A stretch of 64,000 nt of DNA from Bacteroidales bacterium (lineage in GTDB: Bacteria > Bacteroidota > Bacteroidia > Bacteroidales > UBA10428). Shown piece after piece: positions 1 through 23,433 of the stretch. Each line of letters opens with the position of its first letter. The stretch's first letter is position 1. The DNA is taken from assembly GCA_016938235.1 (NCBI GenBank), contig JAFGVA010000063.1, forward strand, positions 56,010 through 120,009, read 5' to 3'. The notes under the pieces are model-generated. The model had not been told where the DNA came from and did not search any database. It was given only the letters and a program-made list of their open reading frames with translations. The position numbers and the translations under genes were made by a program.

Positions 1-1579
1 GTGGAATATGCTATTAGGCGGCATGCTTACTGTCTTCTTCTTTGCCCGGCTTTGGCGAAGAGCTAATATTTTAACCGATGCTGAGTTTGTTTCAATACGG
101 TATTCAGGAAAAGCGGCTAGCTTTCTCAGAGGATTCAGAGCTGTATATATTGGCATTTTTATGAATGTTATTGTAATTGCATGGGTAAATCTTGCCATGG
201 TTAAAATTCTTTCGGTAATGTTTCCCGACCTGAGCATTTTCGGACATACTTCAATTTCAGTTCTTGGCATTGAGTTCTCTGCTCATATGCTTGCGGTAGG
301 CGCCTTGTTATTTATTGTGGCAATTTATTCAGCATTATCTGGCTTGTGGGGCGTATCAATTACAGACACATTCCAATTTATCATGGCTATGTCGGGAAGT
401 ATAGCATTAGCCATAATAGCTCTGAAAAAGATTGGTGGAATAGATATTTTAAAAGAAAAACTTGACCATGTTAAATGGGTATTCGACTTTCTTCCGGCAG
501 TTGAAAGCAAGGGAGCCGAATCGGTTGGCGCCGGTGGAATACTTAAAATGTCGGTTACTGCCATGATTGCATACCTTGGTGTTCAGTGGTGGGCAAGCTG
601 GTATCCGGGAGCCGAACCCGGAGGTGGTGGTTACGTAGCGCAAAGAATGATGTCGGCAAAAGACGAAAAACACAGTTTGTTGGCCACGCTCTGGTTCCAG
701 ATAGCACATTACGCTTTACGCCCCTGGCCCTGGGTTATTGTTGCCCTTGTTACGCTAGTGGTTTATCCCGATGCAAGCGACAGAGGCGCAACCTATGTTA
801 TGATGATTCGCGATTATATGCCTTCCGGATTACTTGGACTAATGATTGCTGCATTCCTGGCAGCATTTATGTCTACCATTGCTTCTCAGACAGTCTGGGG
901 AACATCTTATATTATAAACGACTTGTACAAACCCTTTATAAAGCCAAATGCCAGCGAAAAGTATTATGTTAAAATCTCGAGGATTGCAACTTTTATACTC
1001 ATGGTATTTTCGCTATTTGTAACAACACAATTCGATAAAATTAGTGATGCCTGGAAATTTGTACTGGCCCTGAGCGCAGGAATTGGGCCTGTATTAATTT
1101 TTCGCTGGTTTTGGTGGCGTATTAACGCATGGAGCGAAATTTCTGCTATGTTGGCCCCTTACCTTATATTCCCGGTATTAAAATTTGGTTTTGGAATGGA
1201 TATTATTTCCGGTGATTTCGAACTAAGCCTGTTAATTATTGTAGCGTGGAGCAGTATTGTCTGGTTAATAGTAACTTTTGTTACTTCTCCTGTTGAAAAA
1301 GAAAAACTTAAAAGCTTCTATTCCAAGGTTCACCCTGGTGGCAGAGGATGGAAAATAATCAGCGATACGATGCCTGAAGTAAAAAAAGATTCGGGCTATA
1401 TCTACCTGTTTATAAACTGGATTCTTGGTTGCATTCTTGTAATGTTTAGTTTGTTTGGTTTTGGAAAAATTATTTTCCACGAATACCTGAATGGTATAAT
1501 ATACCTTGTTATAGCCTTAATTGCCGGAGGTGGTATTTACTTTAACCTGAATAAGGTTGGCTGGGATAAGGTGAAGTAG
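1..1579 (+). CDS. Sodium:solute symporter (SSF) family transporter, 5'-truncated by the window edge
   Basis: ORF 8..1579 stays open in the same frame back to base 2. It encodes 523 aa of multi-pass hydrophobic sequence with SSF-like stretches (GGMLTVFFFARLWRR, GGGYVAQRMMSAKDE). Stop TAG is at 1577-1579. Confidence 0.8.
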   Translation, partial: WNMLLGGMLTVFFFARLWRRANILTDAEFVSIRYSGKAASFLRGFRAVYIGIFMNVIVIAWVNLAMVKILSVMFPDLSIFGHTSISVLGIEFSAHMLAVGALLFIVAIYSALSGLWGVSITDTFQFIMAMSGSIALAIIALKKIGGIDILKEKLDHVKWVFDFLPAVESKGAESVGAGGILKMSVTAMIAYLGVQWWASWYPGAEPGGGGYVAQRMMSAKDEKHSLLATLWFQIAHYALRPWPWVIVALVTLVVYPDASDRGATYVMMIRDYMPSGLLGLMIAAFLAAFMSTIASQTVWGTSYIINDLYKPFIKPNASEKYYVKISRIATFILMVFSLFVTTQFDKISDAWKFVLALSAGIGPVLIFRWFWWRINAWSEISAMLAPYLIFPVLKFGFGMDIISGDFELSLLIIVAWSSIVWLIVTFVTSPVEKEKLKSFYSKVHPGGRGWKIISDTMPEVKKDSGYIYLFINWILGCILVMFSLFGFGKIIFHEYLNGIIYLVIALIAGGGIYFNLNKVGWDKVK

Positions 1580-1580
1580 C

Positions 1581-1622
1581 AAGTTGGGAGTTGAAAGACC
1601 GAAGCTGTGAGTTTGAATCAAA
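1581..1622 (+). repeat. Degenerate heptad-periodic tract (AAGTTGG GAGTTGA AAGACCG AAGCTGT GAGTTTG AATCAAA)
   Basis: The tract starts 1 nt after the symporter stop codon. Six 7-nt units carry RAG in phase. The first two units match the unit vocabulary of the arrays at 18589 and 33341. Confidence 0.4.
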
Positions 1623-1646
1623 ACAATAAAGTTTAGAAGAAAAAAA

Positions 1647-2492
1647 ATGCCGGAAAACAAATATATAATAGGAGTTGATTTAGGCGGAACAACCATTCAT
1701 GCGGGGTTGGTTAGCAATGGAATAGTTATAAAAAGAGCTGAAAATCCAACTCAGAATTATGAATCAAGGCAAAAAGTATTCGAAAATCTTGTTAAAGCAA
1801 TACAAGAAATAGATTCAAATGAGGCTGAATCGATTGGAATTGGTCTTCCTGGAATTTTAAACCCTGAAACAGGTATTATTCACGATATAGTTAACATACA
1901 ATCGTGGAATGGTTTTAATTTAAAAAAGGAACTTTCTCAAATTCTCAATAAACCAGTTTATATCGATAACGATGCTAATTGCTTTGCTTTGGGGTCAGCC
2001 AAATATGGTGCTGCCAAAGCCTTAAAGCATATGGTTGGTTTAAGCCTTGGTACAGGATTAGGTGCCGGTATAGTTAGTAATGGAATAATTTATGGCGGAC
2101 TTAACAATGGGGCTGGTGAATTTGGCCAAATACCTTATCAGAAGTACCGGTATGAGCAATACTGTAGCGGACAATTTTTTACTAAAATAAAGGGGGTAGA
2201 CGGAGAAAACGTTTTCCGGGCTGCATGTAATAATGATGCACATGCGCTTGAAATCTGGCGTGAATTTGGAATTCATTTAGGAAAACTTGTAATTAATATT
2301 TTATACAGTCTGGCACCGGAAGCTATTGTTTTTGGTGGCTCAGTGAGCAAAGGTTTTCCCTATTTCAGTGCTGAAATTGAAAAGGCTCTTACAGCTCTGC
2401 CCTTGAGAAATGTTGCTGACAATATACAATTACTGGTTGAAGAGAATGAAGATATAGCTTTGCTTGGAGCAGCTGCTATATGTTCAAAATAA
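1647..2492 (+). CDS. ROK-family sugar kinase (glucokinase / N-acetylhexosamine kinase-like)
   Basis: 281 aa with an N-terminal ATPase phosphate-1 motif (IIGVDLGGTTIHAG), DNDANCFALG and GAGEFGQ motifs typical of ROK/ASKHA kinases. The CxCGxxGC zinc motif was not seen. Confidence 0.8.
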   Translation: MPENKYIIGVDLGGTTIHAGLVSNGIVIKRAENPTQNYESRQKVFENLVKAIQEIDSNEAESIGIGLPGILNPETGIIHDIVNIQSWNGFNLKKELSQILNKPVYIDNDANCFALGSAKYGAAKALKHMVGLSLGTGLGAGIVSNGIIYGGLNNGAGEFGQIPYQKYRYEQYCSGQFFTKIKGVDGENVFRAACNNDAHALEIWREFGIHLGKLVINILYSLAPEAIVFGGSVSKGFPYFSAEIEKALTALPLRNVADNIQLLVEENEDIALLGAAAICSK

Positions 2493-2502
2493 AAACAGGC
2501 TC

Positions 2503-3594
2503 ATGAACTCAAAACGATTACTCTCCCTCGATGCATTTCGTGGTTTTACCATTGCTGCCATGATTTTGGTAAATAACCCTGCTGACTGGGGGCATGTTTT
2601 TACACCCTTATTGCATGCTGAATGGAACGGAATTACGCCTACTGACCTTATATTTCCATTCTTTTTATTTATTGTTGGTGTTTCTATTGCCGTGGCATAT
2701 TCAAAAAGACTCCACGCGGGCGATAAAAAATCGAATCTGGTTAAAAAAATTGTCTGGCGTTCTGTTAAAATATTCCTGGTTGGAGTTGCACTGAGTTACA
2801 TTCATGTATTGAATTTCGAGGATTTAAGAATTGTTGGTGTATTGCAACGAATAGCCATCGTATTTTTGATTTGTAGTTTACTTTATTTGTTCTCAAGCAC
2901 CAAAGCCCAAATTATTATTGGCTCTGCACTGTTATTGATATACTTCATAGCCATGTGTTTTATTCCCACACCGGGATATGGAAAAGTGATGCTGGAACCG
3001 GGAGTAAACATGGCAGCATGGATAGACAGTTTCATAGTTCCGGGAAAGATGTGGCAGGGAAGCTGGGATCCGGAAGGATTTTTCAGCACAATCCCGGCTA
3101 TTTCAACAGGTATTTTCGGAATACTTGTTGGTCAACTAATAATGAGCGAGCTGAAAGTTGAAACTAAAATAATCTGGCTGTTTATTACCGGATTCATGGT
3201 AACAATTGCAGGTTTGGTCTGGGGTTGGATTTTTCCAATAAATAAAAACCTATGGAGTAGTTCTTATGTGTTATTTACTGGCGGACTTGCCAGTCTGACA
3301 CTTGCTGTAAGCATTTACCTCGTAGATGTACTTAAAAAGACAAAAACGGCCCAAATTGGGATAATTTTCGGTGCAAATGCCATTACAATTTATGTGCTGG
3401 CCGATTTGCTAAACTTTGTTTTTTATCAAATGATGATTGGCTCATATAGTCTAAGCAATTATTTTATGCAATGGTTTCAATCAACAGGTATCATGATGAA
3501 AACCGGGAGTTTTCTTTATGCGCTGATGTATATTGGGGTATTGTTTGTGCCTGCTTACATTCTTTATAGGAAGAAGGTGTTTATTAAACTTTAG
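2503..3594 (+). CDS. HGSNAT-like (DUF5009/DUF1624) transmembrane acyltransferase family protein
   Basis: Motif RLLSLDAFRGFTIAAMILVNNPADWGHVFTPLLHAEWNGITPTDLIFPFFLF followed by about 10 predicted TM helices. I place the start at ATG 2503; the ORF-track start at 2464 is a TTG that overlaps the ROK gene. Confidence 0.75.
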   Translation: MNSKRLLSLDAFRGFTIAAMILVNNPADWGHVFTPLLHAEWNGITPTDLIFPFFLFIVGVSIAVAYSKRLHAGDKKSNLVKKIVWRSVKIFLVGVALSYIHVLNFEDLRIVGVLQRIAIVFLICSLLYLFSSTKAQIIIGSALLLIYFIAMCFIPTPGYGKVMLEPGVNMAAWIDSFIVPGKMWQGSWDPEGFFSTIPAISTGIFGILVGQLIMSELKVETKIIWLFITGFMVTIAGLVWGWIFPINKNLWSSSYVLFTGGLASLTLAVSIYLVDVLKKTKTAQIGIIFGANAITIYVLADLLNFVFYQMMIGSYSLSNYFMQWFQSTGIMMKTGSFLYALMYIGVLFVPAYILYRKKVFIKL

Positions 3595-3611
3595 AATGTA
3601 TATATTAAACC

Positions 3612-3665
3612 GGCGCGCGGCTCTGCCGCGTGACACAGTACAGTCACGCGGCAGAGCCGCGCGCC
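3612..3665. terminator. Perfect 23-bp GC-rich inverted repeat (hairpin); possible bidirectional terminator or palindromic element
   Basis: GGCGCGCGGCTCTGCCGCGTGAC (3612-3634), 8-nt loop, GTCACGCGGCAGAGCCGCGCGCC (3643-3665). It lies between convergent genes, and a T-rich run (ATTTTCTTT) begins 9 nt after the right arm. The GC content stands out sharply against AT-rich flanks. Confidence 0.45.
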
Positions 3666-3675
3666 AGTATAAAAT

Positions 3676-3759
3676 TTTCTTTATGCACTATTGTATATTG
3701 GGATATTGTTTGTTCAGGCATATTCTCTATACAAAATAAAAATATTTATTAAGCTTTAG
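3676..3759 (+). pseudogene. Displaced, diverged second copy of the last 27 codons plus stop of the HGSNAT-like gene
   Basis: 3676-3759 translates as FLYALLYIGILFVQAYSLYKIKIFIKL*, against the live gene end FLYALMYIGVLFVPAYILYRKKVFIKL* (3511-3594). The copies have the same length and the same frame modulo 3. The offset is exactly 165 nt. Confidence 0.6.
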
Positions 3760-3856
3760 AAATTTTTGGTAAGAGGCTTAAATGCACGCCATACGTCAAA
3801 GCCGTTCGTTAACTTATACTAATTACTGCCTTCGCAGGAACGACGATTTATACAAA

Positions 3857-4849
3857 CTAAAAATGCGGGCATGGAACAGCACCAAGCTTATTGCTTTTAC
3901 CTCCCCAACCAAGCTGAAACTGGTAAGATAGTGAGATTTCATGTGCCCCTCCTGTCGATGCAAGTAACCTCGACGTTGAAATATCATAGCTGTAATTTAT
4001 CAATATATCCCTATAGGTATAGCCTGCAAGTAATACCACGGCATTCATACCGGCATTGTCTTTAAATACAGGCACTCCCCTAAAAAACAAACCGATACGA
4101 AAAGGGTGCTCTTCGTAGTAAGCTCCTAAATCGAGTTGATTAAAACGCGCCTGGTTTTTATAAAAAAATGAAACTGTAAAAGTTCTGTCAACCTTTGAAA
4201 TCACACTTTCAAACAGATTCATTTGTGCTCCGCCATATACACTTATTTTAAGTGCCGGATAGGTGGGATCATCAGAGAAGTTCTTATTCAGCGATAGTAA
4301 ATGATCGCCCGTGAAACCAAACCAGTAAAAAGATGAATATACGAGTGCCGAAGTACTGAAATCATAGTGTTTTACCATTTCCTCCTTCGGAATTTCTATT
4401 GAAGACACGGCGCTTCTTGTAAGCTGATCTGCAAAATCAATAGAATTGTAATCAATATTTCTGAAATAGTAACCAGCTTTCATCCCGGGCCGAATGCTTA
4501 TTTCCCTGTTTACAGGAATAGTATATGAATAGGTTAAACCCAGATTGGTTGTATTGTACACTCCTCCCTCCTGGGTTCGGAATATCATTGCACCAATTCC
4601 ACTCTTATAATCATAGAGATAATGATCGAAAGAGAAAGCATAATCGGTATAAGCCTTTGGTAAATTTGGCCACTGATTTCTGTAATTGGCAATGAACCTT
4701 GTTTTCTCAGTTGCTCCTGTAAGCGATGGGCTCAAATACAAGGGAGAAGAATAAAACTGTGAAAACTGAGAATCCTGGGATTTTGAGGTTTTTAATAAAA
4801 ATAACCCCAAAACTACGAATGCGATATATTTTAATTTCATATTATTCAA
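3857..4849 (-). CDS. PorP/SprF-family type IX secretion system outer-membrane protein
   Basis: Signal peptide followed by QDSQFSQFYSSPLYLSPSLTG...ANYRNQWPNLP, the hallmark N-terminus of PorP/SprF. The start codon directly abuts the stop of the upstream giant type-B-CTD gene. Confidence 0.9.
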   Translation of the reverse strand: MNNMKLKYIAFVVLGLFLLKTSKSQDSQFSQFYSSPLYLSPSLTGATEKTRFIANYRNQWPNLPKAYTDYAFSFDHYLYDYKSGIGAMIFRTQEGGVYNTTNLGLTYSYTIPVNREISIRPGMKAGYYFRNIDYNSIDFADQLTRSAVSSIEIPKEEMVKHYDFSTSALVYSSFYWFGFTGDHLLSLNKNFSDDPTYPALKISVYGGAQMNLFESVISKVDRTFTVSFFYKNQARFNQLDLGAYYEEHPFRIGLFFRGVPVFKDNAGMNAVVLLAGYTYRDILINYSYDISTSRLLASTGGAHEISLSYQFQLGWGGKSNKLGAVPCPHF

Positions 4850-7800
4850 TTATCGAATTAACAATACCGTTCCTACCTTTTTATAATCTCTGCCGTTGTT
4901 GTATTTGCCCGTTACTTTCCAAACATATACACCTTCTTCAAGTAATTCTCCATTGTAGTAACCATCCCATCCAATACTAATTTCACGACTTTCAAAAACC
5001 AGCACTCCCCATTTATTGAATACCTCAAGATGGTATTCATCCAATCCTTCTCCGATGGGGAAAAACACATCGTTACTAAAGTCATTTTCATTATATACTC
5101 CGTTACTTGAGCCTTCAAGATTGGGAGTAAATGCATTCGGGAATATAATGGTTCCACTTTCCAGTACCTCTACTGCTCCAATCATAGTTGTAGAGTCGTA
5201 ACAGTTTTTATCAGAGTATGCATGTAGGGTGATATCGTATAAACCGGGAGTTACATAAGTGTATTTCGGGTCACGTTCTTCAGAGGTGGATCCGTCACCA
5301 AACTCCCAGACATAGCTAACTGCATTTGTAGAATTATTTATAAATAATGCATCTTCTTCCGGAATATAAACCTCTTTATTTACAACCAGGAATGAAGCAT
5401 CTGGCTGAGGATACACTGTAATAAGGGTATCTTTCTGTATTACCTCACCGGCATTACCGATTATTGTTAGTGTAGGACGATATGTACCTGGTTCGGTATA
5501 AATATGTCTGACCGTTACCTCTTCCGAGCTTGTTCCATCATCGAAATCCCAGCTAAATGGCAGGTTATCCATCGAATTGTTTACAAAGTATATCTCCAGT
5601 GGAGGACAACCTTCGCTGCTTGTAATAACAAAACTCGCTCCGGGAGGTACATTATATGTAACAGATACATCATCGTAACTTATACAACCATTTATATCGA
5701 CAGACCAACGGAATGTATTTAAACCCGCTCCCAGTCCATTAACAAAAGTAATTGAGTTGTTTTGTTGTTCAAAAGCACCTAAGCCTCCTACAACCGACCA
5801 CATTCCATTACCAGATGAAGGATTATTTGCTGCAAGCAAAGTTCTTGGCTCTCCAACAACCTGGTCAATTCCGGCATAAATATCCAGTTTATTATTTACA
5901 ACAGTGATATCGTCGGTAGTTTCACATTCGTCATAAGTAATTGTCCAGCGCAAGGTATTTGTACCAAATCCAAGATTTGAAACAATTGCATCGTATTTTG
6001 CGGCATTATCAAAAGAGCCTGAACCACTAATAACACTCCACATTCCTACTCCACTAATCGGATCGTTTGCAAAAAGTTTACCCGAAGCACTGCAAAGTTC
6101 CATATCCTGTCCGGCATCCGCCACGTAGGGTAAATCATTCGTAATAACAACATCGTCGTATTTGGTGCAACCTTCATTTTCAATAACCCACCGTAGCGTA
6201 TTATTTCCAGGATTCAAACCTGAAACTGTAGTGTTATACTTTGTACTGTCTTCGAAACTTGCAGCACCACTTACCAGTACCCAATGACCGGTACCTATTG
6301 CAGGTATATTGGCAAACAAGGTAGTATAATCGCCACAAATTGTTTGATCACCACCCGCTATTGAAGTAGAAGGCGAATTATTGGTTACAGAAACATTGTC
6401 GGAAGAAGAACAATCTCCGTTTAAGATCATCCAGCGTAAGACATTGGTACCTTTGCCCAGGTTCCTGACTTTTGTATTATAATTAATGTTATCAACGAAA
6501 GTTGCTGAACCTTTAATAACAGACCATTGTCCAATACCAAAGGGAGGATTATTTCCGAACAATACCGTTGAATCGGAGCAAACAGAAACATCTGTTCCCG
6601 CATCACTATCAACAGTTGCATTATTTGTTATTACTACCTCATCAGTAGAAGTACAACCACTGTTTGAGATTGTCCAGCGTAAAGTATTTACACCGTATCC
6701 CAGATTTGTTATTTTACTGGTATTGCTGTTTATATCAGAAATAGTCGCTGAACCACTCAGAATAGACCATTCGCCAGTTCCAATTAATGGCACACCAGCC
6801 TTAAGTGCGGTACTGTCAATACATAAAGATTCATCTGGTCCGGCATAGGAAACAGTTGGCAGATCATTACTGATAACAACATCTGCATGAGATTCACAAA
6901 TATCGTTAATAATTGTCCACCGTAGAATATTTGCTCCTTTATCGAGTTTGGAAACTCGCGTATCTGGTTGTGTTGCATCATCAAATGTTGCTGAACCCGA
7001 ACCGCCCAATACAGTCCATAAACCTTCACCCGCATCCGGATTATTGGCTTCAAGAACGGTGGTTTCAGAGCAAATCGCCTGATCGGATCCGGCCACTGCT
7101 TCGATAAGTGAATTAGTTATCACCACCTCATCGAAATTTGAACAACCGTAATTCGAAATAGTCCAACGAAATACATTAATTCCCTGATTCATATCCGTAA
7201 CTTTCGAAGTTGAGCTCAATGAGTCAGCAATATCACCTGAACCACTCTGTATTGACCATGTTCCGGTTCCAATTATCGGAGTATTAGCTGCCAGGCTTAT
7301 AGAATCGGCACACAAAACTTTATCGGCTCCGGCTTGTGCTTTTGACGGGGTGTTATTTGTAACAACAGTTTCATCGAAAAGAGAGCATGATTTATTGGTA
7401 ATTGTCCATCGAAGTGTGTTATCTCCTTCAGCAAGACTTGAAACAATATTTCCATTGAATGTGGCTGAACCACCTATTACGCTCCATGTCCCTGTGCCTA
7501 CTGAAGGTGTGTTCGGACTTAAAATTGTGGTATTAGAGCATATAGACTGATCCTGTCCGGCAATAGCTTCAGTAGGCAAATCGTTGCTTATCGAAACATT
7601 GTCGCTAAGGATACATGATTTATTGGTGATTGTCCATTTATAAATGTTTTCACCTTTAGACATGCTTCTGACAATTGTATTATAAACTGAATCATTGTCG
7701 AAAGTTCCTGCACCACTTACTACAGTCCATTTTCCTTTGCCAATCAAAGGCTCATTTGCTGAAAGTTTTGTAGAGTCTGAGCACAAAACCTGTATTCCTC

Positions 7801-10800
7801 CTCCATCAGCCTGTGTTGGCAAGTCATTTGTAATAACCACATCGTCTGACGAATAGCCATTTTGCCAGATTGTCCAGCGTAATACATTGTCACCAGATGC
7901 TAAGCCTTTCACCGTTGTGTTGTATTGTGTTTTATCGGTAAAGGTTGCTGAACCCTGAATTACTGACCATTCTCCAAAGCCAAATATTGGTTCATTTGCT
8001 TCGAGCTGAGCCTCGGTAGAACAAATGGTTTGATCTGAACCTGCATCGGTATCTGTTGGTGTAAAGTTTGTTATTATTACTTCGTCGTACGATATACAGG
8101 AATTATGGGAGATAGTCCACCGGAAAGTATTATCGCCGAGTGCCAGACCAGTAACATTTGTATTGTATAAACCAGGTTCAGCAATAACCGCAGAACCTGC
8201 AATTAAAGACCATGTACCGGTGCCAATAGCCGGAATATTTCCCTGTAATGTTGTAAAGTCGGCAGTAATAACTTCATCATTACCAGCATCGGACTGGGTT
8301 GGTGAATCGTTTGTAATAGAAACGGTATCGGTACTTATACAACCATTGTTATTGATATTCCATCCCAGAATATTTTCGCCTTTAGCGAGGCCTGTTACCC
8401 TGGTATTGTAAAGATTATTATTTACAAATGCTGCAGAACCACTAAAAACCGACCAGTTTCCAACACCTGTAACAGGTGGAGTTGCTGCAAGATCAGCAGT
8501 TCTATCGCAAATTACCTGGTCAATACCGGCATTAACACTGACTTTATTATTTGTAACAGAAACTTCATCAATTGAACTACAAATTCCATTGGTAATTGTC
8601 CACCTAAGTATATTTGATCCCTTACTTATGTTCGTTATTGCAGAGTTATTCTGTGAAGCATTGGCAAAACTAACAGAACCTGAAATAACTGTCCAGTTTC
8701 CAACGCCAACGGCAGGATTGTTTGCTGACAAAGAAGTTGAAGTACCACATATTGACTGGTCAATGCCTGCATACGCTGTTGAAGGAGCCTGGTTATCAAC
8801 TACAACCGTATCATAATCGGAACAGGTACCATTTGTTAATGTCCATCTTAAAATGTTTATACCTGATGCAAAAGCCGATGCAGTAGAAATTGGACTGTCG
8901 CCATCAGAGAAACTGGCAGATCCAGTTGTTATCGACCAACCTCCAAATGCTCCATCGGGCGGGGTGTTTCCTTCAAGGGTAATGCTTTCGATACAAATAG
9001 TCTGGTTAGTACCAGCCTCTGCTACCACACTGTTATTTCGGACAACAACAGTATCGGTTGAAGAACAACCACTTTGCGTTACTGTCCAGATAAATGTATT
9101 CGAACCAGTTCTCAGGTTTGTAACCGACGAAGTGTTGATATTTACATTCTGAACAACTGCCGGGCCATCAAGTACAGACCATGTTCCGGTTGCAGTACCC
9201 GGATGTACTGCTTCAAGTGATGAATTATCTGAACATATGCTTTGATCCGGACCTGCAAGTGCATTAGGAATCGGATTTGCAACAACATTATGGGCTGTAG
9301 AAATGGTTCCGTTTCCACAGGTATTTTCACCCTGAACAAATATGTTACCTCCTAGTTCTCCATTGGCAAATGAAACCTCGATTAAGCGGGTTCCTTCGCC
9401 TGACTGTATGGTAACACCTACAGGTAAAATCCAGTTGTATACGCTGGTATTATTGATATTGGCAACTTCAAATATTACATTTTCATCTCCCTGGCAAACA
9501 CTTGTGGGTCCAACAATTACACCTGCAGCTGATGGATAAACATTAACTGCCAAATCGGATCCATCGCTGTTCACAGCTCCACAGGTTCCTGTAACGACAC
9601 AGCGATAAATTCCGGCATCGGTTGATACCAGGTTATTTATAGTAAGAATAGCTGTATTTGAACCAAATACTTTTGCATTATCAGATAGGTTTATTTCATT
9701 CCTCTGCCATTGATAAATCAGGTTTTCGCCCGTTGCGGCAACGGTAAATACAGCAACATCACCCTCACAAGTAGATTTGCTTACAGGTTGAGTGGTAATA
9801 ACAGTTTCTTCAGTAATTGTAACTGAAGCGGGGGAACTGTTCTCGGTTCCGCACGAACCGGTGACCAAACAGGTATAAACACCTGAATTAGAGAGAATAG
9901 AATTATTCAATAATAAGGTATTGGTAGCAGATCCAGATATGTCACCGCCATCAGAAAGATTCGAACCATTCTTTTTCCACTGATAGGTTAAATTATCTCC
10001 AAGTGAAGCTACATTCATTGATACCTGGCTTCCTTCGCACACTGTTGTTCCAACCGGTTGGGTAAAAATATGCGTATTCTCATACGAATTTAGAGTGGCA
10101 ATATTACTGTTTACCGTATTACAACCGCCTGTTACCATACAACGGAAAGAACCATCATTGGCAGGAACAATTCCATTAATATTTAACAATGAAGTATTTA
10201 CCCCGGAAACAGCTCCGGTATTACTTAAGTTTACTCCATCTTTCTGCCACTGATAAGTAATATTTTTACCAGAGGCTAAAACAGAAAAACTCACATTATC
10301 GCCTTCACAACCTAAAATATCGATGGGTTGCAGACTTATTTTTGTGACTGAATCGACTTTAACTATTGCCAGGTTGCTGATTGCTGAACTACACTCACCT
10401 GATACTTCAACAGTATATGACCCTTTATCGGTTAAAACTGCATTTGTAACACTCAGATTTGCTGAGTTCACACCCGAAATATTGCCTCCATTCGATAATG
10501 CTACTCCGTCTTTTGACCACTGATAAACCAGATTATCGCCAATGCCAACAACTCCCATTGAGAATGAACTTCCCTCACAAACAGTGGTTCCTGTAGGATG
10601 AGTAGTTATCTGTGTAGTTGTATATGAACTTAATGTTGCAGGATCGCTATAAATAGTGTTACAGGAACCCGTAATTTCGCATCTGTATGAAGCCGCATCA
10701 GCAGGCACAATATCTGCTATACTAAGTACATTTGTACCTGTACCACTTATTGTTCCTCCATCAGAAATATCAACACCGTTCTTTTGCCACTGGTAAGTTA

Positions 10801-13800
10801 AATTATGACCGACAGCAACAACAGCAAAGCTTACATTATCGCCATTACAGCCCGAAACATCGACCGGTTGCTGAATAATTTCTGTCACTTTTCTAACTTC
10901 AACATCGGCAAGGTTGCTAACTACCGTACCACAACTACCGGTAACTTCTACAGAATAAACTGCATCATCGGACAGCACTGCATTTGCAATATTTAAATTC
11001 GCTGTATTTGTTCCGGTAATATTTGCTCCGTCAGAGATATCAGTAACTCCCTTGCGCCATTGATAAGACAGATTGCTTCCTGTAGCAAGCACAGTCAATG
11101 TGGTTGTTTGACCTTCGCAAATAATATCTCCTGAAGGATTAGTTGAAATAGCCGTGATTTCATTTGAAGTTAACCCGGCTGAATTTGAATTTTGTGTTCC
11201 ACAACTTCCGGTTACGATACATACATAAGAACCATCATCTGTGGGATCCAGTCCTGAAATACTCATATTTGGCGTATTTGTACCAGAAAGTGTACCTCCA
11301 TCAGAAATATTTCCTCCATCTTTTTGCCACTGATAGCTTAGGCCTGCACCATTTGCCAATACCGAAAATGTTATATTGTCGCCATTGCATCCTGTTGCAT
11401 CAACAGGCTCCAAGGTAATTTCTGTACTTTCTTCAACAACAAGTTGTGCAATTATGCTATTATCTGAACCGCAAATGCCGTTAACCTGACACGTATATGA
11501 ACCAATATTTGTTGAAGCAGCATTCGATATGGTAAGGTCTGCTGTTGTAGCTCCTGAAATATTTCCTCCATTGCTAAGTACAGCCCCTCCTTTGCTCCAA
11601 GTATAAGTAAGATTATCTCCTTCGGAAACTAAAGAAAAGGTTTGTGATGAACCTTCACAAATAGTATTTCCTGATGGCTCAATTGTAATGTTTGTATTTT
11701 CATATATTGTCAGATTAGCAGGGTCGCTATTCGCTGTTGCACAAACACCTGTCACAATACACTGGTAAATTCCTTCATCAGAGGCAACTGTTGAAGAAAT
11801 ACTTAGTACCTCTGTGTTAACACCGCTTATCGTACCTCCATCTAACATATCAGAACCATTAATTTGCCATTGATACGTTAATGATGAACCCGAAGCATCA
11901 ACAGAGAAAATTGCAGCATCGCCTTCGCATCTGCTAATTGCAGCAGGCTGAGTATTTATAACCGGATTCTGATTTACAGTTAAAATGGCTGGAGCAGTGC
12001 TCTCACCAGTAACAATACAAGTGTAGGCACCGGCATCAGACAATGTAGAACTTGTAATATTCAGATTAGCTGTAGCAACACCTGTAATGTTTGCATTATT
12101 TACTAAATCTACACCATCCTTTCTCCACTGGTAGGTATTCCCTGTACCACTGGCTGTAACAGTGAAAGCTGCACTCTCACCTTCGCACCGGGTAATACTT
12201 TGAGGTTGATTAATAATATTTGTTGTCAGGTTTACTGTTAGATTTGCCGGATTACTGATAATTGTATTACAAGTTCCTGTTACAATACATCTATATGCAC
12301 CTTCATCAGCCTCAGCCACTCCAGTTAAATCAAGGGTGGCAGCATCAGAACCTGAGATGGTTGCATTATCCGCCAAATTAACACCATCTTTTTGCCATTG
12401 ATAGATAAGGTTATCTCCCCCGGCAACAACTGAAAATGATGCATCTCCTCCAACAACAATTGTATAAGCAACCGGCTGTGTAATAACTGTTGTGGTTGGG
12501 TTAACAATTACATCAGAAGATGTGCTGTTTTCACTGCCGCAAGAACCAGTAACATAGCAACTGTATATACCATCATCCGTTTCATCAATACCGGAAATTA
12601 TTAAGTTATCGCCAAGCGATCCTGAAACATTACCACCATTTACAAGATCAACACCATCTTTTCTCCACTGATAGCTAAGGTTAGTACCATCGGCAACAAC
12701 AGAAAGGTTGAGGTTGTCACCTTCACAAAGTACGGAATTTAGCAGTGGCTGGCTTGTAATGTCTACCGTTTCGTCAATAATCAAAGTAGCACCATCGGAT
12801 ATTTGAGTTCCACAATCACCCGAAATAATACAACGATATACTCCGGCATCACTAGCCGTAACAGCAAGTATGTCAAGCCCGGTTGAAGTCTCGCCACCGA
12901 TATCCATTCCATTTTTCTGCCATTGATATGCCAGATTCGAACCTGTTGCCAGCACACTGAAGCTTGCATTTTCTCCCGGACAGGCGATTAAGTTAACAGG
13001 TTGTTCTGAAATTGTAATGGCTTCATCAACAATTAGATTTACCGAAGTACTGTTAACGGAACCACAAGTGCCGGTAACAACACAACTTATTACTCCTGCA
13101 TGAGTTAAATCTACCGGATAAAAACTTAAACTGTTTGTGTTAACACCCGAAATTGCTGCACCATCGGCAAGATCAATGCTATTCAATTTCCATTGGTAGG
13201 ATAATCCTGTACCGGCAGCTGTTACAACAAATCCGGCACTGCTACCTTCACAAACTTCCTCATCGGTTGGTTCAATGGTAATTGAAACTGCTGAATTAAC
13301 CGTTAAAGTTGCACCTGCCGAAACGATTGTACCGCAATCACCAGTGATTACACACCTGTATGTTCCGGCATCGCCTGCTGCAACACCCGACAATAATAAT
13401 CCGGCACTAGATTCACCAGGAATATCTATCCCATTTTTCTGCCACTGATACAATAGAATGTCGCCTGTTACAACAACATTATAGACAACATTATTGCCTG
13501 GACAAGCTGTTTTACTCTGTGGCTGACTTGTAATAGCTATTCCTTCGTTAACAGTGAGATTTGCAGGAAGTGTATTTTCTAAACCACAAGTACCGGTCAC
13601 TTCACAAACATATGCTCCTTCATTGGTTAGAGCCACAGGATCGAAAACCAGGTTATTTGTGTTTGCCCCGGTAATACCTACACCATCGACAACATCAACT
13701 CCATTGTTTTTCCATTGATATGTCAGGCCTGTACCCGTTGCTTCGACTGTTAAACCTGCCATTTCACCCTCGCAAACTGTTTGATTCGCAGGTTCTGTTA

Positions 13801-16800
13801 TGATAATAACATCTTCATTAACAATTAGGCTGGCAGCATTGCTTATCTCGGCACCACATGTACCATTTACCACACATCGATATAATCCTTCATCAGCATC
13901 CGTAACATTGTTCAGTAATAAAGCTGAATTTTCTTCCAAAGGAATATCAACTCCGTTAACCTGCCATTGATATGATATTCCTGTTCCTGATGCAGTAACA
14001 TTGTAAATAATATCATCGTCTGGACAGGCAGTTTTATTCTGAGGATTTAAGGATATTGTGACTTCTTCGTTAACGGTAAGATATACCGTTGTACTGGTTT
14101 CGTTACTACAAGTACCACTTACAACACATGAAATTGAGCCTTCAAGTGCTGTAATTGCCGGGTTTATTACCAGGTTATTGGTTGCAGATCCGGATACACC
14201 CCCTCCATCAACGAGATTTGAACCATTTAACTTCCATTGGTAGGTAGGTGATGTACCAGTAACTGTTATGGAGAAACCAGCAGCTTCATTTTCACAAACT
14301 TCATCATTAACCGGCTCAGAGGTAATTTCAATATCTTGGTTTATGGTAAGAAGAGCACCGTTGCTGTTCACTGTTCCACAATCGCCTGTAACCACACAGC
14401 GGAAGGTTCCTGCATCGGCGGTGGTAACATTATTTATTATATAGCTGTTGGTAGTTACGCCAACAGGTACGCCACCTTTTTGCCACTCATAGTTTAAATT
14501 GGTTCCTGTTGCTGAAATACTAAATACAGCATTACCTCCCTCACAAACCGACTGATTGGAAGGGTGCACAGAAATACTTGTATTTTCCTTTAAAACAAGG
14601 TTTGCCGGATTCGATGTTTCAGAACCACAACTTCCGACCACTTCACACTGATATACTCCGTTATTACCCGCAATTATTCCAATTATATTTAATGTGTTTG
14701 TTAGTGCTCCGGAAATATTACCTCCGTTTGTCAGATCAAAACCATCTTTTTTCCATTGATAAATTAAATTGCTTCCGTCAGCAGCAACTACATAAGTGGC
14801 ATTTCCGCCTAAACACTCGGTCACAGTTGTTGGTTGCAAAGTTATTATGGTATTAGCATAAAGACTTAAATCGGCTGACTGACTGATTAATGTTGAACCA
14901 CAGGAATTTGTAATAATACAACGGTAACTTCCAACATGAGTAGCATCTACACCGATAATTGAATAAACAGAATTAGTTGCTCCGGCAATATCAATACCGG
15001 CTTTTTGCCATTGATAACTTAGATTTGAGCCTGAGGCTGTAACACTAAAGGATATATTATCTGTTTCACAAGCCTGAATATCTGTTGGCTGAACAGAGAT
15101 GGCAATTGCATCATCGACGGAAATAACAGCTGGATCGGAATCAATAGTTCCGCAATCGCCAAACACTTTACAATAATAAGTACCGGCGTCGGTAACATCG
15201 AGGTTATTAATAACAAGGTTATTGCTTAAAGCACCAGAAACATCACCTCCATTTACAACTATTGCAGCATTTTTGTACCATTGGTAATTCAGGTTTGAAC
15301 CCGAGGCTGTAACTGAAAGATTTATATTGTTGCCAACACATTCTATTGCATCAGTCGGCTGAACACTAATTGCAGTCAAAGGATTGATGGTTAACGTTGC
15401 TATTGAACTATTAAGGCTTGAACCACAGGAATTTGAAACTACACATCTGTAATTCCCGGCATCGGCAGCAACAACAGAATTCACATTTAAGTTAGCTGTT
15501 GTAATTCCCAAAGAAACTCCATCTTTAAACCACTCGTAACTTAAATTACTTCCAGTTGCAACAATTGAAAAGGTTATATTATTTCCCTCACAGGCTGTCT
15601 GACTAAAAGGTTGGGTTGTTATAGCAATAGCATCATCAACAATCAATGTAGCCGGATCACTATCTAAGGAACCACAATCACCAGATACCTGGCATAAATA
15701 ACTTCCTGCGTTAACAGGTGCTACCCCTGTCAGAACCAAAATATCTGCAGTTGAACCTGAAATCACACCACCATCAACTGTTGGTAAACCATCTTTTTGC
15801 CACTGAAAGCTTAAATTTGACCCTGTAGCCGTAATGCTGAAACTGGCATTTCCACCTTCACATTCAACAGCATCAACCGGATGAGCAGTAATTGCAGTTG
15901 CTATATTCATTGTTAATGTTGCTGAAGAGGTAAGCTGTGTTGCTCCGCAAGGACTCGAAACAAGGCAACGATAATTACCGGCACTTGTAGCATCAACATT
16001 GTTCAATACCAGACTCTGACTGGTCTGACCGACTATATCTACACCGTTTTTTCTCCATTGATAAGACAAACTTGTACCTGTTGCAGTAACATTAAAGCTT
16101 ACACTATTACCCGGACAAGCGGTTTTGCTGACCGGCTGGCTGGTTATAACAATAGGTGCATCAATTTCAACAGTTGCTGCATCGCTTTCAAGTATTCCAC
16201 AATCGCCCGTGACAACACAACTGTATAAACCAATATCTGCAGTAGTAACATTTGTAATTACAAGATTAGACAGTGTTTCTCCTCCAATATCTACTCCATC
16301 TTTCTTCCATTGATAGCTCAAATTTGAACCTGTTGCAATAACTTCAAGACTTATTGTACCTCCTGCGCATAAGTATTGATCGGTAGGATTAGTAGTTATA
16401 GCAGTTGCCGAAACCATTGTTAATGTAGCCGCATCGGATGTTAAAGGACCTCCGCAGGTGCTCGTAATTTCACAGATATAATCGGCCTCAAAAGTGGCAT
16501 CGATTCCATTAAGTGCGAGAATTGGGTTAACAGCGCCTGCTATCATTGCGGCATCTTTATACCATTGATATGTAAGGTTAACGCCCGTTGCTTCAATTGA
16601 GATTGTTGTATTAGAACCTGGACAACCATTAACATTTGAAGGCTGTGTGGCAACAACGACTTGAGGATGAACATTTACCTGAGCAGAACCCGCTCCTGTG
16701 TTGGAACAACCATTTCCATCTGTAACAACACTGATGGTATAGGTAGTAGTATCTGTTGGTGAAACATTATTATTATACAAAAGAGCACCATAATTGCTTA

Positions 16801-18901: not shown

Positions 18902-21900
18902 TTATTCCATTTGTTCCTCATCAGAGGCTTCGTTGCCCTCCAAAATATCCTGCCAGCGGCGATAGAAATTGTTTTTCTTACGATCTGTTGAAATTAAGTA
19001 ATTGTATGGCGTTTCGTTACGTGGAACTTTAAGCTTTCGTTCCTTCAACTTCATATTCATAATCGTTTCAACATACTCCTTGTTGTGCGAAAGGGTTTGC
19101 ATAATTCCCCTGGTATATCCGAAATAGTAGTAATTTCTTCTGTCAAGCTGAAGGTATAAATCCATAATATCGCCACTGCGCTTAAGTCTTAATTCGAAGA
19201 ATCCTTCAAGCTGCTTATTAATCTGTATTCCGTTGATACTTGCAATTCCAATTTTGCCAACAGACTGATAAGAATTTGTATTATTATTCCAGACAAGCTT
19301 TAACTGGTTGAGCAAAATAGTATGTTTTAAAGGCGAGGGCAGATCTTTTATTGTGCCGAACAGGTTCAGTTCATCCTGTATTTTTTGCGCTACAGGTTCG
19401 GTTAACCAGGCATTCATTGTTTTTTTATAAACCGACCTGGTAAGGTCAACCGGAAATATATTTGGAAAACTATCGATCTCATTACCTACCAGATTAATCA
19501 TGTGATCAGAAATATAGAAATCAATACCCATGATTACATCCAGTTCGGTTAATTTCTCATTCAGATCATGTTTAAAGTTACCGTAAGTTGTCAGTTTTAC
19601 CTGTCCCAGATTTTCTCCCAGATCAATGTTTCCTTCACCGTACATTTTACAATCTTCGCGATGAAGACTTAAGTAATCTTGAGATAAGGTAAAATCATTG
19701 ATCTTCTCCTTTGAGCCTATCTTATATAAATGAGAGGCCTTATCGTAATGCAGATATCCCGAAGTTTTTATCAGTTGGCGATCGCTGTAATTCTTGCGAC
19801 CGGTTAAGAAGCTTGGATAAACATGCACCGAATCGTAGTAAACGAACAGTCCGCTATAGATATTTTTTCTGTCGATATTCTTAGATTCGAGCTGAACCGG
19901 GATATAGATATCATCGGGGTTTATTTGAGTTCTGAAAAACAGCCAATCGGGCTCAAGTATATCGCAGGCATGCTCGATTTTTGTTGAACCTTCGAAGGTT
20001 AACAATGAATCTTGAGCGAATAGAAATACCTTGCCCTGATACTTATAAACAGGACTTAAAGTAAAATCTGCCGTAGAAAAGATTTCACCCTGAGCAATAG
20101 TCTGCAATCCGGAGTCGACTTTAAGTTCCTTAAAATGAATTGTTTGCTTTTCCCGGTTTTCATCGAAATAATCATAATTTCCCATACCGGTATAATCTTT
20201 CCTGCTAAACACCTTAACCGATGCAGTATGCAGAGTATGGTATTTTGTTGTTGTATTTGCTCTGATTCGTGCATCGATAAACCTGCTCAGAGTATAATCG
20301 GGCTGAACACTTAACAAACCATCTTTAGGATAAATTTTTGCATCAGCCACCTCAATAAATTTCACCCCTGTTGCATTAATGTAATTTCTTTCATAATCGT
20401 AATATGCAAGAGGAGACACGAAGTTCAGAGAATCTTGTTTTTTATCGGTTGAAATGTACCTTGGGCCTTCAGGTTCGGTATCTTCATCGCTATAATCAGG
20501 TAATTCAGGCCTGGTTTTTGAACCCATTGCCAGTTTTTTGTCTTTCATATCCCATACAAAAACATCAATGTAACTTATGTACCTGTTTTCAGGAAATGTG
20601 ACCAAAGAATATCCTTCATTAGACTTAAACCAGCCTTTTCTGTTACGGTAGTCAATATGGCTGTTGATATTCTCAGTTAATACTGTAAAGCCCTCTTTTC
20701 TTATTGATTTTAAATAGAAATCGGAAGTATCTGCAAATATTTCATCGGCTTTATAGGTGAACAAATCCGAAATTAAGTCAGAATTTCTAAGATCCATTCT
20801 GCCTTTCCCCGATAAACCAACCGGTTCAAGTTTTAATGTTCCGGAAAGTGTTGTGGAATCATTAAACATAGTGAAATTATCGGTTGTTTTATGTACCCAC
20901 ATTACATCGTTGTATGGTTCCCAGTGAACATAGTTTTGTGTAGACCGTGTCATTGGATATTCCACACCTGAGAAACTTTTTTGAATAGTATACTGTTGTG
21001 AATTCGTATTCATTGAATCGGGGAAGAAATTGAAATCATCGGACCATGTAGTTGATGTAAGGTACTCCAGTTTACCATTTCCTTTTAATCCCCTGTTTGA
21101 TAGGGTAATATCATTGTAAATGGTGCCTTTACCTCCAAAAACAGGCATTCCCTGACTTGGTGTTTTATGGGTAAAACCTAATGAATTATCATCCTGTAAG
21201 GATAATTCCTGGTTGATATCGGGTAAAATTCCTGCTGAAACGAATTTACCCTTATAGGTCATTGAATAGGGATTAAAGTTATCAAGACTATCCATTTCGA
21301 AGGGTTCAACAGCAAAATAAAAATCGTTTGATGAATATGCACCATCCTGAATTGCTGATGATTCGTAGTAAACATAGGATGTTTCTCTGCTTTTGAAAAT
21401 GGGATATTGGGGATATGAGACGCGTCCGGATTTATTATCCGCCTTATCAATCAATATTTCTCCGGTTATATTTCGGATCCTGTTTTTAATATTTTCAATG
21501 ATCGGAAAACCATAATTGTTCAGTTCCCCTGTCATGAAGTCAATACTTAGAGAGTCGACATTTTGAAGGTTCACTTTGAATGAATCGTAACTAAAAAACA
21601 AGTTCTTACCGAAGAAAGTCATTAATCCTGCAGTTACTACACCATCGAACTGGAAATTCCGGTCATGCTTAAATACTATTCGTTGATTTTCCGGATAAAT
21701 AATAACATTTTGTGAATCACTCACCTGAATTTGCGGGATCCCATTTATAGTCAGGTCATAGGTTTTTAAATTGAAAACAGCATTTTCTTCCGGAGCCTGA
21801 ACAACAGATTTAAATGCCATTACATCGTAATCGATTTTATTTACACTTGCTGCCAGGTAATCGTGTAACCTTTGTTTGATTGTAATTGTTTCTGTATTGC

Positions 21901-23389: not shown

Positions 23390-23433
23390 ACCCAAATTGC
23401 TTAGTTAAAAACCAGTTTGTATGTGAATAGATT

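Follow-up and report, generated by a model that had tools for sequence, protein, structure and literature searches.

The DNA immediately downstream of a DUF5009/HGSNAT-like membrane protein gene contains a second, dead copy of the 3' end of that gene. On balance, this dead copy is probably a pseudogene, the remnant of another copy of the gene that had evolved under coding constraint and was displaced or deleted. The site as a whole is most likely an ordinary genomic scar and not a new kind of mobile element. All positions below refer to the window, which is the whole stretch of 64 000 nt that was analysed.

The end of the DUF5009 gene is present twice

The live gene runs from 2503 to 3594 on the + strand and, according to the ORF listing, encodes a protein of 363 aa. 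The product is 100% identical to the NCBI entry 'DUF5009 domain-containing protein [Bacteroidales bacterium]' and its homologues belong to PF07786/PF16401; a direct Pfam scan of the protein itself at E<=1e-3 returned no family. Copy 1 of the repeat (3510 to 3596, + strand) consists of the last 27 codons of this gene, the TAG stop (3592 to 3594) and a further 2 nt. Copy 2 (3675 to 3761, + strand) consists of the last 27 codons and stop of a second DUF5009-family copy.

An earlier, sequence-only reading of the window had described these as 87 nt direct repeats, about three-quarters identical and offset by 165 nt. Both figures are correct: the copies match without a gap at 66 of 87 positions (76%), their start-to-start spacing is 165 nt, and only 78 nt lie between them. 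The translations quoted in that reading are also accurate, and the two copies do share one frame and the same stop, both ending in TAG, with homology that reaches 2 nt beyond it. The same reading had allowed that the similarity might prove not to be significant. In 5000 shuffles of the 260 nt downstream spacer, the best 87 nt match had a mean of 34.8 and a maximum of 43, compared with the 66 observed, and a tblastn comparison of the live C-terminus with the 600 nt downstream gave E = 9e-14. The longest exact stretch common to both copies is 12 nt long, TTTTCTTTATGC, and is situated at the start of the repeat. Along the repeat, identity tracks amino-acid conservation.

Copy 2 is a decayed gene end

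Copy 2 is truly homologous to the 3' end of the gene, and it is dead and decayed. Homology to the gene end stops abruptly at 3675, and an in-frame TAA read from the sequence at 3670 to 3672 (+ strand), two codons upstream of the relic, closes the relic frame; this stop was absent from the earlier reading. Which of the copies is closer to the orthologues, a comparison which that reading had proposed, is clear from a profile of 118 orthologue C-termini. Copy 1 scores 72.7 bits (orthologue median, 72.8), whereas copy 2 scores 56.1 bits, which is lower than every orthologue. The relic residues Q14, S17 and I21 occur in 0 of the 118 orthologues, where position 14 is P in 98%, position 17 is I or L and position 21 is a near-invariant K or R. 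At L6, I10 and I23 the relic has the family-majority residue and at position 20 it has K, the second most common (44%); the live copy differs at all four. The retention of majority residues together with three residues unseen in 118 orthologues suggests that copy 2 was a normal gene end which was disabled later.

It is conceivable that copy 2 is still used, either as a small hydrophobic peptide translated from an in-frame TTG at 3691 or by a ribosome hop from CTT-TAG (3589 to 3594) to the CTT at 3679. The frame is intact and in the phase of the gene, the substitutions are of the coding type and a GC-rich hairpin directly follows the stop in an AT-rich genome, all of which would suit such a role. 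However, three conserved positions hold residues never seen in the family, and the orthologues all end in ...IFIKL, indicating that the live protein is complete. A homologous arrangement was found at no other locus, and a 90 nt hop across a hairpin of -64 kcal/mol would be without precedent. We regard continued use of copy 2 as highly improbable.

Apart from copy 2, the window and the 10 kb upstream of it yielded no piece of a second DUF5009 gene, its 5' part included. None of the six orthologous loci has a relic after the orthologous gene, so that all six are without the structure, though these relatives are just 63-67% identical. A search for relics of their own ends after other genes in the window and in two loci from other Bacteroidota genomes (L010 and L014) gave no real case; two further matches were antisense ORFs within a repetitive adhesin gene.

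The two copies probably diverged as coding sequences

The 21 differences between the copies are distributed 4/4/13 over the three codon positions, a third-position excess. The copies agree at 85% of first and second codon positions but approach saturation at synonymous sites. The sequence-only reading had suggested that both copies evolved as coding sequence and that dN/dS between them should be estimated. The NG86 values (dN = 0.17, dS = 1.43, dN/dS ~0.12) agree with this, though dS is unreliable because there are only 27 codons. The copies have an overall identity of 0.74 and a third-position identity of 0.52, compared with 0.56-0.75 and 0.22-0.67, respectively, for orthologue gene ends across genera. 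The copies are therefore no more alike than the gene ends of different genera, suggesting that the relic most likely derives from a second copy that evolved under coding constraint.

As a single event, the simplest that could give rise to the repeat is that the 3' end was duplicated in place. Slippage or unequal exchange would have produced the tandem copies, possibly with the intervening palindrome as a stimulus; selection would then have maintained the upstream copy and left the downstream one to neutral decay. The copies are arranged head to tail only 165 nt apart, which favours this model. Both copies have L11 and the rare V13 (5% of orthologues), which suggests that they are specifically related, and in-place duplication accounts for these residues too. 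AT-biased decay also predicts a relic that is richer in AT, and GC is 0.23 in the relic against 0.33 in copy 1, with 9 of the 21 differences being G in copy 1 and A in copy 2.

We simulated in-place duplication followed by neutral decay of the relic under five mutation models, including one with strong AT bias. At least 13 third-position differences, with about 21 differences in total, arose in ~3% of runs (P = 0.026-0.038), and the third-position excess together with an intact relic frame free of stops in ~1% (P = 0.010-0.015). The simulation gives moderate evidence against in-place neutral decay; the test of coding constraint is only moderately significant (P ~0.01-0.04) because of the 27 codons. 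Near-saturation of synonymous sites is also hard to reconcile with this model when positions 1 and 2 are so well preserved and there is no indel. Additionally, a simple tandem unit would require the spacer that follows copy 1 to be found again after copy 2, and there is no such resemblance. In-place duplication with neutral decay thus fits poorly and we consider it unlikely; a separately evolved copy is the better reading. Judging from the pattern of substitutions, the parent of copy 2 was most likely functional, its divergence having been gathered mainly under coding constraint.

We also considered a target-site duplication, made together with the palindrome, as the origin of the repeat and rejected it, because duplicates of this kind start out identical and the proposal is then the same as the disfavoured in-place model. 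To our knowledge, all known target-site duplications are far shorter than 87 nt.

The relic lies at a synteny breakpoint

The DUF5009 gene stands at the end of a block that reads GH20, SSF transporter, ROK kinase, DUF5009. Its convergent neighbour encodes a PorP/SprF type IX secretion membrane protein (3857 to 4849, - strand; Pfam PF11751, E = 2e-55) and stands at the end of an adhesin-PorP block. The 262 nt gap between the two blocks holds the palindrome and the relic. The SSF-ROK-DUF5009 block is conserved in two orthologous loci (L004 and L028) and the adhesin-PorP block in two other loci (L034 and L035), where its neighbours differ. As the two blocks are conserved separately, the PorP block with different neighbours, the relic is located exactly at a synteny breakpoint, as is the palindrome. 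The nearest database relatives have 67% protein identity for the DUF5009 gene and 73% for the PorP gene, the latter again with different neighbours; no ancestral arrangement and no tandem pair of DUF5009 genes was seen among them.

The source is a metagenome-assembled genome, and one independent contig (L003) breaks within the palindrome. Two strain variants of the gene end might in principle have been misjoined via the palindrome to give the observed arrangement. However, k-mer assemblers are expected to break contigs at perfect palindromes, and the 12 nt that make up the longest shared exact stretch are too few to mislead one. Moreover, a different sequencing run, assembled independently (L002), gives an identical sequence for every base of the region, which shows that the arrangement is not an artefact of the assembly of this genome. 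A misjoin is thus extremely unlikely.

Proposed origin of the relic

If copy 2 is the remnant of a separately evolved gene, then that gene would have been functional coding sequence during most of the time since its split from the live gene. One illegitimate junction, situated 8 nt past the palindrome, would have truncated it at codon 336, after which the relic would have gained a few disabling substitutions. There are two routes by which this could have come about. In route (a), diverged homologous DNA from a related lineage would have overwritten the resident gene, bringing its own end and the hairpin with it. One crossover would have been homologous and upstream, the other illegitimate and within the last 87 nt of the resident gene, an outcome of the type called homology-facilitated illegitimate recombination. 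In route (b), a downstream tandem paralogue would have lost its first ~1 kb, with the deletion endpoint at the palindrome.

The data fit the two routes about equally well and we slightly favour route (a). Route (a) is weakened because homologous recombination is very inefficient at ~25% nucleotide divergence, and route (b) because a tandem paralogue is present in none of the six orthologous loci. The palindrome probably marks where the breakpoint fell, given the fragility of palindromes that are long and perfect. The data themselves show the relic and its decay, divergence of the coding type, the break in synteny and the relatives of the palindrome unit; the route taken, which way the replacement went and what the palindrome does are points that we infer.

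Orphan or displaced gene 3' ends that arise by allele replacement have been described, both as products of homology-facilitated illegitimate recombination and as the sequentially displaced C-termini of T6SS effectors in Vibrio cholerae (PMC3240628, PMC5361080). As far as these accounts outline such cases, the present locus is similar in that a truncated and diverged copy comes after a functional end, and in that there is one sharp illegitimate junction and divergence of the coding type. It differs from the T6SS case as outlined there in having no toxin/immunity logic and in the size of the diverged fragment, which is just 87 nt. It also differs from the allele replacements sketched in these sources in that the homologous crossover is deduced here, with no donor or intermediate seen. 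The scar is a small case of bacterial gene overwriting or loss that leaves a short fossil behind, and the way substitutions are spread over its codon positions can distinguish a local duplication from a separately evolved copy.

The palindrome is probably a REP-type doublet

The GC-rich palindrome (3610 to 3667) begins 16 nt past the live stop, between the convergent genes, and has arms at 3610 to 3634 and 3643 to 3667 around an 8 nt loop (3635 to 3642). The 23 bp stem noted in the sequence-only reading is indeed perfect (3612 to 3634 paired with 3643 to 3665), and the palindrome has a predicted stability as RNA of -64 kcal/mol (z = -11.6). It is an inverted doublet of a 23 nt unit, each unit being itself a small hairpin; alone, the unit is predicted to form a 10 bp stem with a 3 nt loop (-11.8 kcal/mol as DNA, z = -4.3).

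Each arm is identical at 22 of 23 positions to GTCGCGCGGCTCTGCCGCGTGAC, which occurs three times, always at the 3' end of a gene, in two further genomes of Bacteroidota: twice in Sediminibacterium roseum (L010) and once in a Bacteroidota MAG (L014). These lie ~7 to 33 nt after a stop codon or overlap the stop. The MAG copy begins 7 nt past a stop, and in S. roseum the units either follow a stop or overlap one. The similarity extends into the flanks, with TTAAAC upstream of the unit in both the left arm of the window and L014. This likeness to a unit at Bacteroidota gene 3' ends suggests that the palindrome is probably a REP-type doublet.

A search for other copies of the palindrome had been proposed as a check on the sequence-only reading. 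The single-arm unit recurs, but no second doublet was found in the sequences scanned. In ~81 kb of the source contig there is no further doublet or unit (<=3 mismatches) beyond the single doublet, and no doublet was found at any other place in the window, nor in collections of genomes (the source MAG not among them), metagenomes, viruses and plasmids. The genome-collection and metagenome scans used a 20 nt arm as the query. The former gave 11 loci, of which only L010 and L014 are relevant; eight matches were rejected as chance occurrences inside GC-rich genomes. The 11 metagenome loci were likewise all chance matches, all from contigs of 62-72% GC. The viral scan gave one match, on a contig whose GC content was 58% over the part retrieved, and plasmid BLAST gave no match.

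REP doublets are known as REPINs and consist of palindromic repeats tagged with GTAG/CGTC (PMC3733652); subclasses 2.4 and 2.6 of the TnpA-REP proteins are found in Bacteroidetes (PMC6006769). As in REPs, the unit is a GC-rich imperfect palindrome, its 23 nt being within the REP range of 20-40 nt, and as in REPINs two inverted units fold as one long hairpin, here with 23 perfect pairs. The doublet is also extragenic, ~16 nt from a stop between convergent genes, and its unit recurs at the gene 3' ends of other genomes. Unlike REPs, it is represented by only one doublet in ~81 kb of source contig, and no RAYT gene was seen in a motif scan of the window, L001, L010, L014 and L033. Most REP dimers are less tight than this doublet with its 8 nt spacer and perfect 23 bp pairing, and in place of the GTAG/CGTC tag both arms have AGTC-ACGCGG. 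The unit tag is CGTC in both Sediminibacterium copies and GGTC in L014.

The palindrome probably acts as a bidirectional RNA 3'-end hairpin between the convergent genes and is possibly a terminator. It resembles a Rho-independent terminator in being a GC-rich stem-loop just past a stop, with a tail of UUUAAUAUAU following on the - strand. However, the stem of 23-25 bp is far longer than usual, the + strand has no U-tract directly after the stem (the T-run begins 11 nt after it) and a consensus scan for Rho-independent terminators did not call the palindrome. Rfam gave no match in the whole window at the gathering threshold; at E<=1 the only matches around the site were to miRNA models, which we dismissed as generic hairpin likeness.

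Little evidence for a mobile module

The sequence-only reading had interpreted the repeat as the footprint of an insertion, in which a mobile module, the palindrome included, entered at the 3' end of the gene with a replacement terminus; the element would be tiny, or only the scar that a larger one left. The layout is certainly that of elements which integrate at the 3' ends of genes or tRNAs: a gene with a new end, inserted DNA and then the old end, displaced and forming a direct repeat. Furthermore, the 12 nt identical start of the repeat can be read as a crossover core, coding-type divergence suits a module that brought its own gene end, and the palindrome unit belongs to a family dispersed in other Bacteroidota.

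Several observations argue against this interpretation. Unlike 3'-end integrative elements, the locus has no recombinase. The genes around the site encode GH20, SSF, ROK, PorP/SprF, adhesin, sensor kinase and housekeeping proteins, and the earlier statement that no integrase or transposase lies nearby is borne out over ~10 kb upstream and 30 kb downstream. Motif scanning with a crude regular expression gave no HuH/Y1 or RAYT candidates in the window, L001, L010, L014 or L033. The body of the putative element would be merely 78 nt. Its flanks are not exact att core repeats followed by unrelated arms; they match at 76% of their 87 nt, in a pattern that follows amino-acid conservation and not distance from the core. 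No second doublet or 165 nt module is present in ~81 kb of source contig or in the scanned collections, and neither a second copy nor an empty site was seen for this locus. A scar would in addition require an internal deletion that halted just before the old gene end.

We consider a mobile module quite improbable. What stands of the insertion proposal is that copy 2 is probably a displaced end that evolved separately (4/4/13; P ~0.03 for in-place neutral decay); there is no sign that an element brought the replacement. An element with a gene end of its own is left unsupported, given the 78 nt insert, the lack of a recombinase nearby and a doublet found nowhere else in the scanned sequences.

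A bolder form of the idea is that the 165 nt unit is a minimal 'gene-end cassette', a non-autonomous hairpin module that would target the conserved last ~87 nt of DUF5009/HGSNAT-like genes, repair them with a substitute terminus and be spread among Bacteroidota by a trans-acting HuH/RAYT-type or tyrosine recombinase. This we hold to be very improbable, and the understanding of any system is unchanged unless more copies of the whole module appear. The 23 nt GC-rich hairpin unit is itself identical across Bacteroidota of different orders, and it may be worth cataloguing, as little has been described of REP-type repeats and their transposases in this phylum.

The repeated gene end

The window belongs to contig JAFGOS010000102.1 of the uncultured Bacteroidales genome GCA_016926355.1. 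The DUF5009 domain protein gene (NCBI name; 363 aa, 2503-3594, + strand) is intact, and its terminus forms the first copy of a direct repeat. Copy 1 (3510-3596) and copy 2 (3675-3761) start 165 nt apart and align without gaps at 66 of 87 identical nucleotides (76%), whereas the best 87-nt match in shuffled downstream spacer averaged 34.8 and never exceeded 43 in 5000 shuffles. The live C-terminus found the following 600 nt by tblastn with E = 9e-14. Both copies end in a TAG stop and the offset amounts to 55 codons. The sequence-only reading had described repeats about three quarters identical, with this offset and a palindrome between them; alignment bears out each of these points, and the translations that it quoted are correct. 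In the palindrome, an 8-nt loop separates the arms 3610-3634 and 3643-3667, which form 23 perfect pairs (25 if one mismatch is allowed). The palindrome lies with copy 2 in the 262 nt that separate the stop codons of the DUF5009 and PorP/SprF genes.

The structure is real. An assembly of another run (L002) is identical over the whole region, which makes an assembly artefact extremely unlikely. An independent Logan contig of the locus (L003:3006-3029) stops inside the palindrome, 10 nt along its left arm, probably because a k-mer assembler stops at a perfect inverted repeat, but this end could instead reflect population heterogeneity at the site.

Copy 2 as a disabled gene end

The last 27 residues of the family are highly conserved (pattern ..FIPAxILYRKKIFIKL). 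Scored on a profile of the ends of 118 orthologues, copy 1 reaches 72.7 bits, the orthologue median, while copy 2 stays at 56.1 bits, lower than any of them. In copy 2, Q takes the place of the P found in 98% of orthologues, I stands where all have K, R or N, and S occupies a hydrophobic position; each of these residues is seen in 0 of 118 orthologues. At three of the four other positions where the copies differ (L6, I10 and I23) copy 2 carries the family-majority residue, I23 being found in 97% of orthologues compared with 2% for the V of copy 1. At the fourth, its K20 is the second commonest residue (44%, against 52% for the R of copy 1). The rare V13 (5% of orthologues) is common to both copies. 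Taken together, the profile scores, the family-majority residues, the shared V13 and the unseen residues mark copy 2 as a formerly normal gene end that is specifically related to copy 1 and that a handful of substitutions later disabled. Its homology ends sharply at 3675 and there is an in-frame TAA at 3670-3672, two codons 5' of it. That this second gene end is still translated is very improbable.

The 21 differences between the copies fall 4/4/13 on codon positions 1/2/3, with no indels, 85% identity at positions 1 and 2, a dN of 0.17 and a dS of 1.43 (NG86). Total identity is 0.74 and third-position identity 0.52, in comparison with 0.56-0.75 and 0.22-0.67 for pairs of orthologues from different genera, so the copies are about as divergent as the gene ends of such orthologues. 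In simulations of a simple in-place duplication of the gene end, purifying selection acted on the live copy while the relic decayed neutrally; five mutation models were used, strong AT bias among them. Of the runs that gave 19-23 differences, 2.6-3.8% had 13 or more at third positions, and 1.0-1.5% did so with a relic free of stops. Duplication in place is thus an unlikely origin. Near-saturated silent sites beside preserved replacement sites are, by this codon comparison, unlike a long-dead duplicate. This moderate evidence, drawn from 27 codons only, speaks for a relic that descends from a second copy, functional through most of the divergence time.

Genomic context and origin of the relic

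None of six orthologous loci carries a relic after the DUF5009 gene, and none has a tandem paralogue. No other gene within the window is followed by a relic of its own end, and neither the window nor the 10 kb upstream holds a 5' piece of another DUF5009 gene. The transporter-ROK-DUF5009 block recurs in two other loci (L004 and L028) and the adhesin-PorP block in two more (L034 and L035, relatives about 70% identical), beside other neighbours in each. The relic and palindrome therefore lie exactly at a synteny breakpoint, and the adhesin-PorP block, conserved among differing neighbours, seems to move as a unit. The closest database relatives are 67% (DUF5009 gene) and 73% (PorP) identical.

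The sequence-only reading suggested that an inserted element had supplied a gene end of its own. The 4/4/13 pattern and the simulation support a displaced end that was once coding, but not a demonstrable mobile insertion. The geometry fits such an element; however, its body would be only 78 nt, no second copy turned up in about 81 kb of source contig or in the collections scanned, and no integrase or transposase lies between about 10 kb upstream and 30 kb downstream (that reading had itself remarked that none is nearby). We regard the element as quite improbable.

We propose that the gene end was once present in a second copy, which evolved as coding sequence, and that a single illegitimate junction, 8 nt past the palindrome, left only its last 87 nt. 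In route (a), diverged homologous DNA of a related lineage would have replaced the resident gene, bringing its own stop codon and hairpin, by one homologous crossover upstream and one illegitimate join inside the resident gene end. In route (b), a tandem paralogue would have lost its first kilobase through a deletion ending at the palindrome. The two routes together are a fairly probable account. The position at a synteny breakpoint and the lack of tandem pairs in the loci examined tip the balance slightly towards route (a), although a nucleotide divergence of about 25% would make homologous exchange inefficient. Outcomes of this type are reported for homology-facilitated illegitimate recombination and for displaced effector ends (PMC3240628, PMC5361080). 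The site is a new example of a known sort of genomic scar beside a REP-like palindrome, not a new phenomenon, and is of minor importance unless the 165-nt module as a whole is found elsewhere.

The palindrome and its 23-nt unit

As RNA the palindrome has a predicted stability of -64 kcal/mol (z about -11). The window has a single copy, and the search for further copies that the sequence-only reading envisaged found no other in about 81 kb of source contig (up to 3 mismatches). Rfam holds no family for it. When collections of genomes and metagenomes were scanned with a single 20-nt arm, most matches were chance ones in GC-rich genomes, but three lay in Bacteroidota of 43-50% GC. The full 23-mer GTCGCGCGGCTCTGCCGCGTGAC is the same at all three, each of them at a gene 3' end: two in Sediminibacterium roseum NZ_JAACJS010000015.1 (L010:5700-5905 and L010:7620-7665) and one in the Bacteroidota MAG JAZKBI010000015.1 (L014:3664-3712). 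Both window arms match it at 22 of 23 positions, and the likeness reaches a few bases into the flanks (e.g. TTAAAC 5' of the window left arm and in L014). Every copy of the unit directly follows or overlaps a stop codon, and the unit alone folds to a 10-bp hairpin. Each of the three copies has another small hairpin next to it, CAGGCTTCCAGCCTG or CAGCCTCCGGCTG. The first L010 copy continues into an array of tandem 19-nt repeats (GGCCGCGCGACTGCGATGG), about nine in number, in which the right half of the unit recurs, and at L010 position 7641 an ORF apparently ends at a TGA within the unit.

REP elements are described as short GC-rich imperfect palindromes located at the 3' ends of genes, in many cases between convergent ones, and commonly paired as inverted dimers that fold into one long hairpin (PMC3733652); Bacteroidetes are known to have REP-associated transposases (PMC6006769). 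Because the form and position of the unit fit this description, with one long hairpin from an inverted pair, and such transposases are known in the phylum, we read the palindrome as a putative REP-type doublet; GTCGCGCGGCTCTGCCGCGTGAC appears to represent a REP-type family of Bacteroidota not described so far. Of the features that define REP elements, the palindrome lacks the GTAG/CGTC tag; high copy number did not show up in the roughly 81 kb of contig scanned, nor did a cognate transposase in a motif scan that included the window, L010 and L014. The palindrome may also act as a terminator or RNA-stabilising hairpin; a simple scan for terminators did not pick it up, and on the + strand a T-run begins 11 nt after the stem. 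Its arms are perfectly paired while the neighbouring relic has taken several substitutions, which suggests that the hairpin is younger than the inactivation of the relic or is kept by selection.

The live gene and its neighbours

Convergent with the DUF5009 gene is a PorP/SprF gene (3857-4849, - strand), paired with a 4521-aa adhesin with Ig/PKD/CHU_C repeats (4850-18415, - strand). Adjoining the adhesin is a 1500-aa ORF (18902-23404, - strand) with no Pfam family at E<=1e-5.

PF07786 (HGSNAT_cat) and PF16401 are found on homologues of the 2503-3594 protein, while a direct Pfam scan of the protein itself gave no family at E<=1e-3. The look-ups thus disagree, the homologues with these precomputed families being 60-67% identical. 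The gene is the last of its block, which runs GH20 hexosaminidase, sodium:solute symporter, ROK kinase, DUF5009 (window 8-3594 plus L001:4622-11092 on the source contig). The ROK-DUF5009 pair is also present in L004 and L028. The conservation of this cluster suggests that the DUF5009 protein takes part in the uptake or salvage of amino sugars.
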